From Patescibacteria group bacterium (GTDB lineage Bacteria; Patescibacteriota; Minisyncoccia; Minisyncoccales; RBG-13-36-15): 64,000 bases of DNA. The DNA is taken from NCBI GenBank assembly GCA_022574775.1, contig JACZRI010000001.1, positions 95,631 through 159,630 on the forward strand. Direction: 5' to 3'. Every line of letters starts with the position of its first letter. Within the stretch, counting starts at the first letter, position 1. This document shows positions 9,396-58,514 of this stretch, piece after piece. The position numbers were made by a program, and so were the translations under genes. Under the pieces are notes generated by a model, which saw nothing but the letters and a program-made list of their open reading frames with translations, was not told the origin of the DNA and ran no database searches.

Positions 9396-9900
9396 TTTTC
9401 GACTCGGCTCGCCAAGAGTGGCAGATTTCAGGATTCAGAAGGGGGTTTCGGTAATTGAAATTTTAGTAGTGATTTTTATTTTGGCTGTTGCTTTTGTTGG
9501 TATTTTAGGCTTAATCACTTTTTCTTTAAAAGTTTCCACTTTAACAAAAGAGACCACGCAAGCTGTGAATATAACCCAAGAAACATTTGAGGTTGTTCGT
9601 AATTTTCGAGACGGAAAGGATTGGAGTACAGACGGTCTCGGGAGTTTAGTCATGGAAGTTCCTTATCATCCAGAGAAGACAATTGATATTCCTCCTCAGT
9701 GGGCGCTCATTCAGGGAGAGGAGATAATTGATGGATTTTCAAGAAAGGTTGTTTTTAAGGAGGTTTTTCGGGATGGAAATGACGATATTGTTGAAACTGG
9801 TGGAGTATTAGATCCAGATACTAAAAAAGCCACAGTTACTGTTTCTTGGAAAGATCAAGAAGTTGAAGTAGCTACTTATTTTACTAACTGGAATCAATGA
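9337..9900 (+). CDS. Minor pilin, PilV/GspI-like, locus 1 (start uncertain)
   Basis: Prepilin-type segment QKG-VSVIEILVVIFILAVAFVGILG. ATG 9337 lies inside repeat B. In-frame GTG 9418 would give the leader MADFRIQKG. Confidence 0.65.
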   Translation: MKYKVRRNEEKKFSELQTSCFRLGSPRVADFRIQKGVSVIEILVVIFILAVAFVGILGLITFSLKVSTLTKETTQAVNITQETFEVVRNFRDGKDWSTDGLGSLVMEVPYHPEKTIDIPPQWALIQGEEIIDGFSRKVVFKEVFRDGNDDIVETGGVLDPDTKKATVTVSWKDQEVEVATYFTNWNQ

Positions 9901-10448
9901 TCAATAACCAACAATTAACGACTCATAATCAACAAAATGCCTTTACCCTATTGGAAGTTTTAATTTACATCGGAGTTTTAGTTATTATTATGTCAACTAT
10001 TTCTTCTTATCTCATTTGGTCCATCCAAAGCAGCACCAAGATTAAGGTAATGACTGAAACTTTAGATAATGCGCGAAGAGCAATGGAAACTATTGTTTAT
10101 GAAATTAGGGAGGCAGAGAGTGTATATGTTTCAACCTCTGTCTTTGATTCCCATCCTGGACAGCTGTCTTTAGAAACGACGAAATACATACCGACAGATG
10201 AGAGCAAAACTTACATTGATTTTTATGTTTCAAATGGCAGGCTTTGTCTAAAAAAAGAATCCCAAAACCCAATTTGTTTAACTTCAGACAGAGTTGAAAT
10301 TGCTAATTTATTTTTTTCTCAAATTGATACTGCCAATTTCCCTTCTATCCAGATTGACTTAAGTATTGATTACAAAAATCCAACTGGACGTTCAGAGTAT
10401 CAGTCACAGGTTAATTTGCGATCAGTTGTTTCTTTAAGATCATATTAA
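9897..10448 (+). CDS. Minor pilin, PilW/GspJ-like, locus 1
   Basis: Leader MINNQQLTTHNQQNA then FTLLEVLIYIGVLVIIMSTI. 4-nt overlap with the previous gene. Confidence 0.7.
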   Translation: MINNQQLTTHNQQNAFTLLEVLIYIGVLVIIMSTISSYLIWSIQSSTKIKVMTETLDNARRAMETIVYEIREAESVYVSTSVFDSHPGQLSLETTKYIPTDESKTYIDFYVSNGRLCLKKESQNPICLTSDRVEIANLFFSQIDTANFPSIQIDLSIDYKNPTGRSEYQSQVNLRSVVSLRSY

Positions 10449-10515: not shown

Positions 10516-12333
10516 TCGGAAAAGGGTTTTGTCGCCTTGTTTTTATCAGTCCTGATTTTAGCTATAATTTTTGCTCTTGGAACGAGTATCACTATTTTGA
10601 CTTTAGGCCAGCAGAGAATTGCCAGCGATATTACCAGATCTTCTCAAGCCTATTTTGCCGCTGAAGCCGGCATTGAAGACAGCCTCTTGAGAATTCAAAA
10701 CAACAAACTTTATGTTCCTGATAATACTTTAAGCGTTAATGGGGCAAGTGTGGATATTAATATTTCCGGCAGTCCAACTCAGCAAACAGTTATCTCTCAA
10801 GGTGATTTTGATAATATTTTCAGGACTGTGACTACTGTGTTAAAACTTAACACTACTGCGCCTGCTTTTTATTATGGCGCTCAAATTGGCGAAGGAGGTC
10901 TGGAAATGGAGAACAATAGTCGGATTGAGGGTGTTGGCGGTGTGGCTGGAAATGTTTATTCTAATGGGAACATTGAAGGCGATCCAGGAGCTGTAATCAC
11001 TGGAGATGTTTTTGTGGCTTCAAGCACTGATCTTAATCAGCAGTGGGCCGTGTGTAGTAGCGATCAAGTTTTTGGTCAGAATTCCCCAGTACTGGATCTA
11101 GTCCAAAGTTTCAAAATCAATCAAACAGAACGTTTGGTTCAGGTCAGTATCTATTTGAAAAAAAATGGAAACCCAAAGAATCGAACCATCAGGATTTTAA
11201 CTGATGATAATGGTTCACCCAGTGAAACAGTTTTAGCTTCAGCTACCTTAAATGCCTCTAAAGTGACTGAAAATTACGGTTGGATCAATATCGCTATTCC
11301 TAATCCACCCCTTTTAAACGCAGATACTTTTTATTGGTTGATGGTAGATACGAAAGCAGATAGCAATAAATACTGGATTTGGTGTAAAGATCAAAACGAA
11401 GGATATATCAATGGAGTAGCAAAATATAGCCATGATTGGAATGAAGATGATCCAGACTGGACTCAGATAACTGGCGATCTTAATATCAAAATCTGGATTG
11501 GGGGCGCAATCACTTCTCTGGAAAAAATAAGAGTTTTTGGCGATGCTTATGCGAACACCATCTTGGCGAGTGAGATACAAGGAGATGCGTATTATCAATT
11601 CATCGATCAAGGCTCGCTCGATTGGTTAAATAATTATTCTGGAAGTCCAGGCATTGCTTATCCTGATTTTCCAGATCCTGCGGTCAGTGACATGCCTGTT
11701 TCTGATGCAAATATTCAGGAATGGAAAGATGAAGCTGGATGCGGTCAACAGCCAGCCATTCCCCCTTGCTTGATTGAGGGGGATTATAGCCCACCTTCTG
11801 GCGCTTCAACTTTGGGTCCGGCAACAATAACTGGCGATCTCGATATGACCAATCTTCAGGTTTTAGAGATTACAGGCACCGTGTACGTCCAGGGTAATAT
11901 TGATTTTGAAGGTGGCGCAAACCTTGAATCAGGTATGAGTTGCTCTCCTGACTATGGAGAACTCAGTTGTGTTGTACTTTCCGATGGATGGATTCATATT
12001 AAAAACAATAAACTTTTCCAGGGTTCTGGTCAGCCAGAAAGTTATTTTATGCTTTTAACTACGGCTAATTGCCAGGGTGGGGATCAGACTCCAAGTTGTA
12101 CGCACCATAATGCGGCAATGGATTTGCATAATAATGCAGTCGGGGCTATATTTTATGCAGCAGACGGTCTTATTTACCTTCATAACGGGGTAATTATTTC
12201 TGAAATAGTAGCCTATAAAGTTCAGTTAAAGGAAAATGCAGTGATTCAATATGAACAAGGACTGGTTAACGCCCAATTTTCATCAGGACCTGGAGCTGCC
12301 TGGGTAATTCAAAGTTGGCAGGAGACTGAATAA
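10489..12333 (+). CDS. PilX-N-terminal-domain protein with large beta-rich C-terminal region (putative pilus tip/adhesin subunit), locus 1
   Basis: N-terminus KGFVALFLSVLILAIIFALGTSITILTLGQQRIASD..AYFAAEAGIEDSLLRI resembles the PilX N-terminal domain. 614 aa, Gly/Asn-rich. Confidence 0.65.
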   Translation: MLRCLNVKKSEKGFVALFLSVLILAIIFALGTSITILTLGQQRIASDITRSSQAYFAAEAGIEDSLLRIQNNKLYVPDNTLSVNGASVDINISGSPTQQTVISQGDFDNIFRTVTTVLKLNTTAPAFYYGAQIGEGGLEMENNSRIEGVGGVAGNVYSNGNIEGDPGAVITGDVFVASSTDLNQQWAVCSSDQVFGQNSPVLDLVQSFKINQTERLVQVSIYLKKNGNPKNRTIRILTDDNGSPSETVLASATLNASKVTENYGWINIAIPNPPLLNADTFYWLMVDTKADSNKYWIWCKDQNEGYINGVAKYSHDWNEDDPDWTQITGDLNIKIWIGGAITSLEKIRVFGDAYANTILASEIQGDAYYQFIDQGSLDWLNNYSGSPGIAYPDFPDPAVSDMPVSDANIQEWKDEAGCGQQPAIPPCLIEGDYSPPSGASTLGPATITGDLDMTNLQVLEITGTVYVQGNIDFEGGANLESGMSCSPDYGELSCVVLSDGWIHIKNNKLFQGSGQPESYFMLLTTANCQGGDQTPSCTHHNAAMDLHNNAVGAIFYAADGLIYLHNGVIISEIVAYKVQLKENAVIQYEQGLVNAQFSSGPGAAWVIQSWQETE

Positions 12334-34896: not shown

Positions 34897-34933
34897 ATAC
34901 AACTTGACGGGAACTGTTCCCGTCAAGTTGTAT
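34897..34933. repeat. REP-type palindrome (family D)
   Basis: atacaacttgacgggaac-t-gttcccgtcaagttgtat, perfect 18-bp arms. Same core as the REPs around the RAYT gene at 56.7-57.6 kb. Confidence 0.85.
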
Positions 34934-35000
34934 CTTAGTACAGCGGGGACAGTTTCCGGACTAGTTGATTTATTTTGTTAAGGTGATAAGATTAAAAAAC

Positions 35001-55718: not shown

Positions 55719-55744
55719 AGCACAGTAGATAACTGTGGGACTTT

Positions 55745-55774
55745 ACCGAGCACATAATACCTTATGTGCTTGGT
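55745..55774. repeat. Family E hairpin
   Basis: accgagcac-ataataccttat-gtgcttggt, 27 nt after the pilC2 stop. Confidence 0.55.
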
Positions 55775-55963
55775 TCTCGCCTCACTATCGTTCGGCTCAA
55801 AAGTTTTCCACAGCCAGCTCTCCTTAATTTCTGGATTTATAATATAATACACTAAAGGTGCTGGGTTCGAATCTCATACCCTAAAGGCTGTGTTTAAATT
55901 ATCCACAGCCATAAAAATAAAAATAATAAAGGTCGAGAAAGAATTTAAAACTAAGAATTAAAA

Positions 55964-56431
55964 ATGATTCAATTTTTCAGTAAAAAAAGAGAAGAAAAAG
56001 GTTTTACATTGATTGAGTTGTTAGTGGTAATTGCCATCATTGGAATTTTAGCTGGAATTGTATTGGTAGCTTTGGGTGGAGCACGAGCTCAGGCTAAAGA
56101 TGCCCGAATTATCGCAGGGATGACCCAGCTTCGAACCGCATCTGAACTCATTACCTCTACTGAAGGGAATTATAATACAGTAGATTGTGCAACAAGTAGT
56201 CCAGTTAATATTAAGGCACTCTGTGATGATGCAGATCTCCAAAACGGCGCAAAAGGCCCGGTAGTTATTCAGAAACCTGGTGCTCCTTCAGGGGAGTATT
56301 GCGCTGTGGTTGAATTGAATTCAGGAGACTTTTATTGTGTAGATAGTGGCTTAAACGCAGTAAAAGCTCCGACAAGTCCTCTGACTCTTACCTGTGGCGC
56401 AGGGACTCCGACTACTTATACGTGTAACTAA
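55964..56431 (+). CDS. pilA: Type IV major pilin candidate (PilA-like)
   Basis: Leader MIQFFSKKREEKG then FTLIELLVVIAIIGILAGIVLVALGG. 155 aa, six Cys. A strong terminator follows. Confidence 0.85.
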   Translation: MIQFFSKKREEKGFTLIELLVVIAIIGILAGIVLVALGGARAQAKDARIIAGMTQLRTASELITSTEGNYNTVDCATSSPVNIKALCDDADLQNGAKGPVVIQKPGAPSGEYCAVVELNSGDFYCVDSGLNAVKAPTSPLTLTCGAGTPTTYTCN

Positions 56432-56550
56432 GGAATCCAAACGATTGGTTTTCCTTCATTAAGCCCCGACTCTCGAGAGAAAGATAGCTTTGAAAGTAGA
56501 AAGATAGATATATTCCGCAAAAATAAAAATTAGCCGGTTCATTTTCAGCA

Positions 56551-56587
56551 AATCAACCCGCCTCTTCGGCGGGTTGATTTTTTTGTT
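56551..56587 (+). terminator. Strong rho-independent terminator after the pilin gene
   Basis: aatcaacccgcc-tcttc-ggcgggttgatt then ttttttg. Confidence 0.8.
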
Positions 56588-56705
56588 TCCCATTTTTAAC
56601 TTTTGGAGTATTTTTAACCCCATTTTGGATATCGTCTTAACTCCTCCAGGACTTAACTTCTTTAGAACTTAATTGCTAAAAAATATCCTTGTCAAATAAC
56701 AGAAT

Positions 56706-56738
56706 CAACTTGACGGGAACTGTTCTCGCTAGTTCCCG
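56706..56738. repeat. REP palindrome, degenerate (family D)
   Basis: caacttgacgggaactgttctcgctagttcccg. Confidence 0.6.
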
Positions 56739-56787
56739 ATAAACTTACCGAAAACAGTTTACGCTATACCTTCAAATCTGTTATAAT

Positions 56788-56818
56788 CAACTCAACGGGA
56801 ACTGTTCTCGTTAAGTTG
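56788..56818. repeat. REP palindrome, 2 mismatches (family D)
   Basis: caactcaacgggaac-t-gttctcgttaagttg, ending 4 nt before the RAYT ATG. Confidence 0.7.
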
Positions 56819-56822
56819 AACA

Positions 56823-57533
56823 ATGCCGATCAAAAGACCACAATTAGTGACCGGTGAAATCTATCATGTAGTAATGCGTGGAGTTGATAAAAGGATAATT
56901 TTTCCTCAAAAAGAGGATTATTTTCGTTTTATCCACGACCTTTTCGAATTTAATGATGAAGATGATGTAATCAGTGTATACCGTTTCCATACTAACAACT
57001 TGACGGGAACTGTTCCCGTCAAGTTGAGAAAAGAGAGAAAGAAGAGGAAACTTTTGGTAGAAATTTTGGCTTTTTGTTTAATGTCCAATCATTTTCACCT
57101 ATTATTAAGACAGATTAAAGGACAGGGAATAAGCAAATTTATGAGAAAACTTGGGGGTTATGCCACTTACATTAATAAAAAGTATGAAAGAGAAGGCCAT
57201 CTCTACCAAGGAAGATTTCGGGCAGTTCACATTAAAGATGAAACCCAGCTAAAAAATGTATTTGTATATATTCACGCCAACCCTATTGAGTTTATAGAGC
57301 CGGGATGGAAGGAGGAAGGAATAAAAAATCCCAAAGGAGCAATTAAGTTTTTAGAGAGTTATCGGTGGTCAAGTTATTTAGATTACATCGGAAAGAAAAA
57401 TTATCAATCAATAACAAATAGAGAATTATTTAATAATATTTTAGGAAACAAAGAAGGTTGCCGGGAATCTGTTGAAAATTGGATTTTATATAAAGCAGAT
57501 ATTAAAAATTTAGGTCAGGTTGTTTTAGAATAA
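56823..57533 (+). CDS. IS200/IS605-like Y1 (HUH) transposase of the RAYT type
   Basis: GEIYHVVMRGVDKRIIF, HUH motif MSNHFHLLL, GHLYQGRF, catalytic-Tyr context VFVYIHANPIE. 236 aa. Confidence 0.8.
   Translation: MPIKRPQLVTGEIYHVVMRGVDKRIIFPQKEDYFRFIHDLFEFNDEDDVISVYRFHTNNLTGTVPVKLRKERKKRKLLVEILAFCLMSNHFHLLLRQIKGQGISKFMRKLGGYATYINKKYEREGHLYQGRFRAVHIKDETQLKNVFVYIHANPIEFIEPGWKEEGIKNPKGAIKFLESYRWSSYLDYIGKKNYQSITNRELFNNILGNKEGCRESVENWILYKADIKNLGQVVLE
56996..57026. repeat. Perfect REP palindrome inside the RAYT coding sequence (in frame)
   Basis: caacttgacgggaac-t-gttcccgtcaagttg, encoding NLTGTVPVKL. Confidence 0.85.
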
Positions 57534-57560
57534 CTTGACGGGAACAGTTCCCGTCAAGTT
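57532..57560. repeat. Perfect REP palindrome (family D)
   Basis: aacttgacgggaac-a-gttcccgtcaagtt, overlapping the RAYT stop codon. Confidence 0.85.
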
Positions 57561-57576
57561 GGTTAACGGTCTTAGT

Positions 57577-57609
57577 CCAACCTGTCGAGAACAGTTCTCG
57601 ACAGGTTGG
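57577..57609. repeat. REP variant palindrome (family D)
   Basis: ccaacctgtcgagaac-a-gttctcgacaggttgg. Confidence 0.8.
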
Positions 57610-57689
57610 GGATGTTTGTTTTTGGTTTTTTAATTTTGGTTTTTTGGTGTATAATTTAATAATGTTTAGTTTTACGGCATTTTTTCTCA

Positions 57690-58460
57690 ATGTTTAAGAA
57701 AATGTCTGAAAAATTTTCTCCGAATAGAGGATTTTCATTGATTGAAATGCTAACCGTTATTGCCATAATTGGTATTTTTGCAGGGATTGTTATAGTGGTT
57801 GTTGGCTCTGCCAGGAAACAGGCAAAAGAGGCCAGAATCAGCAGTGATTTGGTACAGCTTCAAAACCAGGCAGAAATTCTTTACTTGGATGATGGAAATT
57901 ATAGTAATGTAAGATGTACAACAACCGGTTCTCCGGAAGTTCAAGCTCTTTGCGATGATGTAAGCGATCAAGGAAGCTTAATGACTATTCGACCTTCCCT
58001 TTATACATACTGTGCTTATGCCGTTTTTCCATTTTCCATAAAGGGTTACTGTGTTGACTCTGCAGGTTTTTCAGATAAATTGGCTTTTCCTTCGCTTTCC
58101 TGTGATTTTATTCCTTTCTGTGAATATAGGGATTGTCCCGACTTTAATGCTAATGGAGTGGTGGAATGCAGTAATGATCCAGATCCTGAAGAAGCATCGA
58201 ATTGCCCCTTCCAGAGCCGGGGCGTCCCTGGTAGTGATCTGTATTGTATCTTTGAATGTCATGGGCTTTCCTCAAGTAATCTTCCTTCAGAGTGTGGTGT
58301 TGACCCTTGTCCTCCTCGTGGTGATGCTGGTAATCCTGGTCGTTGTGGAGAGGACAATGAGATATGCTTGGCAATATATGATATTAATGAGGATGGAGTT
58401 GTAGATTTACCTAATGATATATTGGGTGTGATATTATTGCTTGGTACGGTGTGTGAATAG
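57690..58460 (+). CDS. Type IV pilin paralog with Cys-rich C-terminal extension carrying dockerin/EF-hand-like loops
   Basis: Leader ..SPNRG then FSLIEMLTVIAIIGIFAGIVIVVVG. Shares ALCDD and YC.DS motifs with 55964..56431. The tail carries DFNANGVVECSND and DINEDGVVDLPNDILGVILLLG. Confidence 0.75.
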   Translation: MFKKMSEKFSPNRGFSLIEMLTVIAIIGIFAGIVIVVVGSARKQAKEARISSDLVQLQNQAEILYLDDGNYSNVRCTTTGSPEVQALCDDVSDQGSLMTIRPSLYTYCAYAVFPFSIKGYCVDSAGFSDKLAFPSLSCDFIPFCEYRDCPDFNANGVVECSNDPDPEEASNCPFQSRGVPGSDLYCIFECHGLSSSNLPSECGVDPCPPRGDAGNPGRCGEDNEICLAIYDINEDGVVDLPNDILGVILLLGTVCE

Positions 58461-58477: not shown

Positions 58478-58514
58478 AACTTACAGGGATTCAAAATCCC
58501 TGTAAGTTATTTTT
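58478..58514 (+). terminator. Terminator after the second pilin gene
   Basis: aacttacaggga-ttcaaaa-tccctgtaagtt then attttt. Confidence 0.7.

Follow-up and report, generated by a model that had tools for sequence, protein, structure and literature searches.

A 64-kb stretch of contig JACZRI010000001.1 from a Patescibacteria group bacterium (the window; positions are counted from its first letter) carries, between two type IV pilin genes, a gene for a 236-aa Y1/HUH enzyme together with a family of hairpin-forming palindromes that flank the gene and, in one case, lie inside it in frame. We consider it probable (roughly 0.7) that the feature is a cassette of the REPtron/TIRtron type, in which a chromosomal class-2 Y1/HUH single-strand DNA nuclease-ligase is encoded beside the hairpins that it recognizes. 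An earlier note on the window had read the locus as a REP-associated tyrosine transposase (RAYT) accompanied by its repetitive extragenic palindromes (REPs) in a genome like those of the candidate phyla radiation, and the latter placement was borne out, the sources of the protein being named Patescibacteria.

The four motifs that the earlier note took as Y1/HUH hallmarks were all located in the product of the 236-aa open reading frame (ORF), as YHVVMRG (aa 14-20), NHFHLLL (89-95), YQGRF (128-132), and YIHANP (149-154). The Pfam profile Y1_Tnp (PF01797) matched the protein with 41.7 bits against a gathering cut-off of 23, and this score, together with the HuH and catalytic tyrosine motifs, places the enzyme in the Y1/HUH transposase superfamily. 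The tyrosine motif has the Y---NP form of TnpA-Y1 class 2, reading YIHANP in the window enzyme and YIHTNP in the family consensus. An AlphaFold (AF2) model was obtained with a predicted local distance difference test (pLDDT) score of 86 and a predicted TM-score (pTM) of 0.82; only residues 51-69 and the last three (234-236) fell below a pLDDT of 50. The best fold match of this model was 4er8_A, the Escherichia coli RAYT with a REP hairpin (E 4.8e-5, TM 0.71 on the target), and the TnpA proteins of IS608 and ISDra2 were also among the matches, ranked behind 4er8. When the Protein Data Bank was searched with the single sequence, chance matches to leucine-rich repeat proteins and nothing else were returned, and a profile search returned ISDra2 only, weakly.

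The assignment of the ORF as a RAYT-type class-2 (Y...NP) Y1/HUH enzyme gene is thereby supported. The Pfam search of the enzyme gave Y1_Tnp only, with no DnaA-like or other C-terminal helix-turn-helix (HTH), and the tail is helical in the AF2 model. There is one copy of the gene in the window, and no TnpB-like family or other conserved partner recurs beside it or beside its homologs. The multi-copy IS200 TnpA with a TnpB partner, which the earlier note had offered as the result that would overturn its reading, was not encountered in the window or beside the homologs. The homologs number 3184, mostly of about 235 aa; other assemblies with the window gene end 3.2 kb 3' of it.

Features of the cassette and its surroundings in the window. 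L081 is a homologous locus.
Feature	Position	Strand	Remarks
Class-2 Y1/HUH (RAYT/TIRYT-type) enzyme gene	56823..57533	+	236 aa; Pfam Y1_Tnp, AF2 model, fold match 4er8
Distal upstream hairpin	56706-56736	.	Left arm perfect, right arm decayed; L081 equivalent (9887-9915) perfect
Promoter-like site	56758..56787	+	TTTACG-18-TATAAT with TG; consensus scan; adjoins proximal hairpin
Proximal upstream hairpin	56788-56818	.	2+2 mismatches; end 4 nt before ATG
Intragenic hairpin	56996-57026	.	Perfect, in frame; encodes NNLTGTVPVKL, aa 58-68
Downstream hairpin	57531-57561	.	14 perfect pairs; the stop codon TAA forms its first three bases
Variant hairpin	57576..57610 (palindrome 57577-57609)	+	Perfect, 16-bp CCAACCTGTCGAGAAC/GTTCTCGACAGGTTGG, GAGAAC apex, T-rich tail
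Dispersed doublet	34897-34967	.	Perfect copy 34897-34933 (arms extendable to 18 bp) and degenerate partial copy ~34943-34967
Intrinsic terminator of pilA1	56550..56580	+	Left boundary of insertion site; terminator scan
pilA1-like type IV pilin, upstream neighbour	55964..56431	+	
pilin2, paralogous long pilin, downstream neighbour	57690..58460	+	

The palindromes bracketing the gene belong to one family, as had been stated in the earlier note, and their coordinates and that of the distant perfect copy matched. With up to three mismatches, the 15-nt arm CAACTTGACGGGAAC was found 13 times against 1.13 expected, a count reached in 0 of 100 shuffles, and the 15-nt apex CGRGAACNGTTCYCG occurs six times against 0.02 expected. 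All but one of the six window copies are clustered within some 900 bp of the gene. The inventory of the earlier note was right for the copies it listed, and it missed the sixth, which is the perfect in-frame copy. Folded as single-stranded DNA, the window hairpins had z-scores of -3.5 to -8.8, and their 5' flanks read gata, gaat, taat, ctaa, agaa, and agtc. The perfect distant copy lies 7 nt past the stop codon of a methyltransferase gene, and its degenerate partner aligned to the family with a score above those of all 2000 random windows. The variant hairpin has a T-run and was scored as a terminator in the terminator scan; it is likely to be the terminator of the cassette. The base at the loop centre, considered as a marker of orientation, was discarded on reading T, T, T and A, A in the window and being inconsistent in other loci, and an Rfam scan gave nothing at gathering score. 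The terminator of pilin2 (58478-58508, AACTTACAGGGATT-CAA-AATCCCTGTAAGTT) shares AACTT...GGGA with the hairpin family; its candidacy as a diverged member is marginal and is not put forward, the score being equalled by 2.7% of random windows.

Homologous loci were fetched from genomes and metagenomes (160, L001-L160; 151 distinct and 125 non-redundant). The density of near-perfect odd palindromes was 2.8 per kb in the linker upstream of the HuH motif; elsewhere in the ORF it was 0.17 and in the flanks 0.29 per kb. Among the 151 distinct loci the linker held palindromes with arms of at least 7 bp in 90 and at least 10 bp in 51. In 44 loci the internal 21-nt core was compared with flanking DNA, counting as a match no more than two mismatches in 20. 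The core matched the upstream flank of its own gene in 82% and the downstream flank in 73%, versus less than 1% for the flanks of other loci. The core was present upstream, in the linker, and downstream in 55 of the 125 non-redundant loci, upstream and downstream only in 27, in the linker and one flank in 18, and in a single region in 25. The same core therefore stands on both sides of the gene in 82 of 125 loci, and the window gene is likewise flanked on both sides, as are the genes of RAYTs and REPtrons. Between the end of the upstream copy and the start codon the median distance is 21 nt; in most of the examples read, the downstream copy either overlaps the stop codon or begins within a few nt of it. 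The cassette is a Patescibacteria-wide branch with long perfect flanking palindromes and a third, in-frame copy in an expanded disordered linker upstream of the HuH motif.

The internal copy was also considered as a simple insertion, and this was rejected. With each nt of hairpin the linker is just 0.15 aa longer (r = 0.29), and the median linker is 66 aa in homologs without a detectable hairpin and 66-72 aa in those with one, which argues that the hairpin is not a simple add-on. Four truncated homologs (P0007, P0011, P0021, and P0042), tried as excision products, look like artefacts of gene calling or contig ends. An operator model, in which the proximal hairpin adjoins the -10 hexamer, was suggested by the window, by locus L082, and by the relic in L165 described below; it was dropped, the arrangement having a frequency of 29% against 18% at control positions. 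The members at L070 and L073 are 98% identical as proteins and come from metagenome-assembled genomes (MAGs) labelled Gastranaerophilales and Saccharibacteria, which might reflect mis-binning or a recent transfer.

The intragenic hairpin of the window encodes a segment between helix 30-43 and strand 79-86 that is predicted to be a disordered loop, lying as it does within the residues of lowest confidence in the AF2 model. In homologs, genome-specific palindromes occupy the same internal place with compensatory changes. The stems are TTGA/TCAA in the window, TTCT/AGAA in L081, and ATAT/ATAT in the internal copy of L082, and in L081 the same new stem is found in all three full copies. The peptide changes through these paired substitutions while the palindromes stay perfect, reading LT..VK in the window, FS..EK in L081, and IS..DM in L082. 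Among 91 centre-anchored internal hairpins, stem positions 8-12 were Watson-Crick paired in 97, 78, 73, 54, and 58%, versus about 29% in shuffles, and all four pair types were present at these positions; because arms of at least 7 bp were the selection criterion for this set, information comes only from positions past the seventh. The apex is semi-conserved, with the consensus GAGGTC-N-GACCTC and with GGGAAC in the clade of the window. The apex types occur in all three codon phases, which argues that the constraint acts on the DNA and not on the peptide, and codon phase tracks apex type by clade. Selection at the RNA level, sought as a tolerance of G:U pairs, found no support, the sense strand having similar numbers of G:T (8) and A:C (11) mismatches. 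The data support hairpins that are cognate to the enzyme and co-evolve with it.

Outside the cassettes, 25 cognate copies were found in 702 kb of flanks of 56 loci (3.6 per 100 kb), very unevenly distributed. Three doublets, each with a spacing of 65 nt, are in L041, and five copies were counted in L028 and five in L032; the family can thus behave like a low-copy REP/REPIN system. Two MAGs hold two family members each, the paralogs being 65% and 49% identical and each having its own hairpin, which matches the known behaviour of RAYT-type genes. A scan of GTDB representative genomes, a set without the source genome, gave 0 matches to the exact 31-nt pattern.

The chromosomal site of the cassette is shared with relatives. 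The cassette lies inside a pilM-N-O-B-T-C-A...D cluster, and follows directly on the pilA1 terminator in the window, in L081 (enzyme 79% identical), and in L082 (80%). That terminator, a hairpin with a T-run, is conserved in L081, L082, L163, L164, and L165, with and without the cassette. The last three are relatives located through PilC (75, 77, and 71% PilC identity, respectively). L163 and L164 have the order pilA1-terminator-pilin2-pilD with no cassette. L165 holds a solo relic, ctgttataatAACTCAACGAGAACAGTTATCGTGAAGTTG, equivalent to the junction of the window promoter and proximal hairpin without the gene; the TGTTATAAT of the promoter-like site is kept there together with the hairpin. 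The simplest reading is an ancestral cassette and later losses, one of them from hairpin to hairpin.

The pilins on the two sides of the cassette were held to be paralogs in the earlier note, and pilA1 and pilin2 are indeed 45% identical over 129 aa (E 9e-21). Its suggestion that the RAYT had contributed to the duplication of the pilins found no support when the locus was compared, as it had proposed, with RAYT-free relatives: the pilA1-pilin2 tandem is present in L163 and L164, and the duplication therefore does not require the cassette. A part of its suggestion that the RAYT had contributed to rearrangement of the pilins survives, on circumstantial evidence. The gene order is pilin2-pilD in the window and in L163-L165, and pilD-pilin2 in the RAYT-bearing L081 and L082; in L081, pilD lies between the 3' hairpin of the cassette and a short cognate hairpin, CTCGGGAACTGTTCCCGAG (11623-11651), itself before pilin2. 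These features are suggestive of a hairpin-associated rearrangement of pilD and pilin2.

Several further observations concern this locus. A T-run and a -10-like segment are found on both sides of the cassette (56581-56625 and 57606-57660), and both copies align to a single terminator-tail/promoter segment in the empty site of L164; the target region may have been duplicated, or the likeness may come simply from the T-rich sequence, the alignment being weak. In L083 a 666-nt insertion (748-1413, relative to L082 1120-1200) carries a gene pair resembling an antitoxin and a toxin (77 and 83 aa) and a duplicated 5' end of pilD. In L165 a small GIY-YIG nuclease gene (2583-2849) lies between pilC and the first pilin gene and is absent at the equivalent place in the window, where the 245-nt pilC-pilA1 spacer (55719-55963) holds a segment like a tRNA T-arm, GGTTCGAATC; ARAGORN found no tRNA there and Rfam nothing above gathering scores. 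Within 3 kb of the RAYT homologs of L001-L160, distant members included, the commonest neighbours were type IV pilin (16 loci), PilC (6), and prepilin peptidase (6) genes. This neighbourhood may be due to chance, pilin-like genes being numerous in these genomes.

Among known systems, the closest are the TIRYT/TIRtrons (subclass 2.1) and the RAYTs of subclass 2.4, of which the former are the better match in motifs and flank geometry. TIRtrons were described as Y1 genes with low-copy, partly self-complementary repeats at fixed distances that share the sequence GGGGWSAS (Di Nocera et al. 2013, PMC3733652). TIRYT was subsequently classed as TnpA-Y1 subclass 2.1, with a length of 238 aa, NH[YF]H, FQ, Y[IV]HLNP, and an SS tail, and with no REPs found nearby (Quentin et al. 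2018, PMC6006769). Subclass 2.1 corresponds to Bertels Group 1 and subclass 2.4 to Bertels Group 4, and the flanking 16-mers of both groups occur only about 12-14 times per genome (Bertels et al. 2017), which the low copy number seen here fits. We compared the window enzyme with the motif set of TIRYT/subclass 2.1 (about 238 aa; NH[VYF]H; W[EQ] or FQ; YIELNP or Y[IV]HLNP; SS tail). It has 236 aa against the subclass median of 238, NHFH, YQ (FQ in the family consensus), YIHANP, and YRWSSY as an 'SS' tail, and departs from the set at one position of the tyrosine motif; the assignment is made by motifs and by 28% identity to an R. rubrum gene. The repeats flank the gene as in TIRtrons, and the window apex GGGAACAG (GGGAACWG) agrees with GGGGWSAS at 7 of 8 positions. 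Sequences of the GGGGWSAS type also occur in or beside the gene in other members, as GGGGACAG in L013, L035, and L061 and as GGGGTCAG/GGGGTCTG in L015 and L026.

The R. rubrum homolog is on a plasmid and has YIELNP and YRWSSY. Hairpins of the GGGGTCAGACCCC type lie at its stop codon and 37 nt ahead of its start codon; the long linker and the internal copy are missing. Annotated as 'transposase' (L166; NC_007641.1, 32300-33588), this TIRYT-type gene adjoins a toxin-antitoxin pair. The Patescibacteria cassettes differ from TIRtrons in having long, perfect palindromes (arms of 14-23 bp) as repeats, in that the linker is some 40 aa longer and bears the third copy, and in that the Pfam search of the window enzyme found no DnaA-like HTH at the C terminus. 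With subclass 2.4 they share cognate palindromes that flank the gene and also sit inside it with the reading frame intact, in a peripheral variable region, as well as the HuH motif (NH[IFV]H in that subclass). However, the window copy lies 32 aa upstream of the HuH motif, between helix A and strand 2, which is not the place of the internal copy in subclass 2.4. That subclass has YIxNNP as its tyrosine motif where the window has YIHANP, a median of 194 aa, and REPs with GT[AG]G feet or double feet, and it occurs in Cyanobacteria and Bacteroidetes but not in Patescibacteria. The REPtron of E. coli (YafM with REP/BIME, 4er8, subclass 2.2) supplies the best structural match and a single-copy gene flanked by bound, co-evolving hairpins; however, identity in the structural alignment is 14%, the E. 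coli enzyme has 165 aa and no C-terminal tail, and its REPs are imperfect, GTAG-tagged, and present in hundreds of copies. The TnpA proteins of IS200/IS605 elements (IS608, ISDra2) have the HUH/Y1 fold and recognize subterminal hairpins on single-stranded DNA, but their own features, namely Y...Q, a length of about 150 aa, multiple copies, often a TnpB partner, and asymmetric ends, were not found here. In the literature searched, no paper linked Patescibacteria with the terms RAYT, REPIN, or TIRYT.

For a REPtron/TIRtron-type cassette we envision the following. The perfect palindromes would extrude as hairpins in single-stranded DNA during replication or transcription, and the enzyme would bind them by reading the semi-conserved apex, G-R-R-R-W-C N G-W-Y-Y-Y-C. 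The lower stem could covary freely between genomes because it would only have to pair. The intragenic copy would be tolerated because the segment it encodes is a disordered surface loop. As a live substrate, it would be homogenised with the flanking copies, by gene conversion or by the enzyme's own cutting and rejoining, and would for that reason remain perfect and the same as they are. Titration or regulation of the enzyme in cis is a further probable role. If active from time to time, the enzyme could mobilise the hairpins and account for the sparse dispersed singlets and doublets such as that at 34.9 kb, for loss of the cassette from hairpin to hairpin as in the L165 relic, and for rearrangements ending at hairpins and the patchy presence of the cassette among relatives.

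A number of observations weigh against this proposal. The activity of the enzyme on the hairpins is a prediction, and no cleavage site could be deduced for it. The profile search that the earlier note had proposed succeeded with Pfam and failed with the NCBIfam equivalog model REP_Tyr_transpos (NF047646), which scored 50.4 bits against a cut-off of 80 and matched only aa 73-155; both profiles align only from residue 73 on because the in-frame hairpin copy encodes aa 58-68. The canonical REP foot GT[AG]G is absent at the window hairpins, and their stems are perfect and not imperfect. The flanks of 45 of the 56 loci lack dispersed copies, and 63 kb of the window holds one distant doublet, so that a REP-spreading role in the window genome is weakly supported. 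Of the REP-RAYT system claimed in the earlier note, the RAYT-type enzyme, its cognate hairpins, and distant copies thus stand, and the canonical REPs do not. The 27 of 125 loci that keep matched flanking hairpins without the internal copy indicate that this copy is dispensable. Perfect palindromes fold alike on both strands and in the mRNA, and a role at the RNA level may be involved. Finally, conservation is higher in the cassette than in the genes around it. In the comparison of the window with L081, identity is 79% for the enzyme, 75% for PilT, 64% for PilC, 56% for PilD, and 54% for PilA1, and L082 and L083 share 98.5% of their nucleotides in the cassette but are 77% identical in the adjacent pilD. 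This could equally fit recent horizontal movement of the whole cassette by recombination.

The in-frame copy is open to two other interpretations. It may be a neutral passenger, left by a cis-acting enzyme that piles copies around its own gene, among which only in-frame, stop-free insertions in a disordered loop survive. The disorder of the loop, the loci that lack the copy, and the clustering of most window copies around the gene all agree with this, and the in-frame REPs of subclass-2.4 genes were read as tolerated insertions by Quentin et al. (2018, PMC6006769). On the other hand, hairpin-free homologs have linkers almost as long, codon phase follows apex type by clade and is non-random, and most internal copies are perfect and change in step with the flanks, where a neutral relic would be expected to decay as the distal copy at 56706 has. 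We regard the passenger as a serious contender, if not the probable one. Slightly less favored, and on balance unlikely, is the proposal that the in-frame hairpin is a selected cis-element by which the enzyme recognizes a site in its own coding sequence, with the three-site layout being ancestral and maintained in a large Patescibacteria family. Expression would then be under feedback from enzyme bound to the mRNA stem or to the extruded DNA hairpin, or alternatively, cutting at the internal copy would lead to hairpin-to-hairpin excision that switches the gene off. Were this so, the enzyme, whose gene contains a copy of its target, could change specificity only if all three sites changed with it.

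Two further explanations concern the cassette as a whole. We consider it improbable that the unit of about 0.9 kb is an autonomous insertion sequence of the IS200/IS605 kind that moves by peel-and-paste, with the hairpins as its left and right ends and with patchiness arising by insertion rather than loss. The fixed short distances of the hairpins from both gene ends, the presence or absence of the cassette among close relatives, its conservation above that of the flanks, and the resemblance of its fold to the TnpA of IS608 and ISDra2 as well would be in keeping with such an element. However, the tyrosine motif is Y...NP and not the class-1 Y...Q, the top fold match is a RAYT, and neither near-identical duplicates within a MAG nor TnpB were found. 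Three diverged genomes have the cassette at one and the same site, solo and doublet hairpins occur without the gene, and the relic in L165, retaining the cassette's own promoter junction, points to loss. Moreover, the same symmetric palindrome stands at both ends of the cassette, where the ends of IS200/IS605 elements, such as IS608, are asymmetric. Less probable still, in our estimation, is that the hairpins are RNA or transcription signals, such as terminators, mRNA-stabilising stem-loops, or translation attenuators as in IS200, and that they match the gene through local duplication rather than through recognition by the enzyme. Every cassette copy is in or next to the transcript, the variant hairpin scores as a terminator, the proximal copy ends just before the ATG, and the distant copy lies just past a stop codon. 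But the T-run is missing from most copies and there is no sign that G-U pairs are tolerated, and the combination of genome-specific stem and conserved apex mirrors hairpin reading by Y1 enzymes. The distant proteobacterial homolog has the same geometry, and local duplication leaves the concerted compensatory change in all copies unexplained.

How the domesticated transposases of the RAYT and TIRYT types benefit their hosts, and by what rules they select targets, is not yet well understood. The family described here places RAYT/TIRYT-type systems in the small genomes of Patescibacteria and comprises dozens of natural enzyme-hairpin pairs, with the apex conserved and the stem covarying, which form a data set for how Y1 enzymes read hairpins. 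A target inside the gene is not confined to subclass 2.4 of Cyanobacteria and Bacteroidetes, but is found again in a second branch, at a conserved position that is not the same, and a functional role of intragenic copies thereby becomes testable. The series of presence, absence, and relic in the type IV pilus cluster offers material on cassette loss and on hairpin-associated rearrangement.

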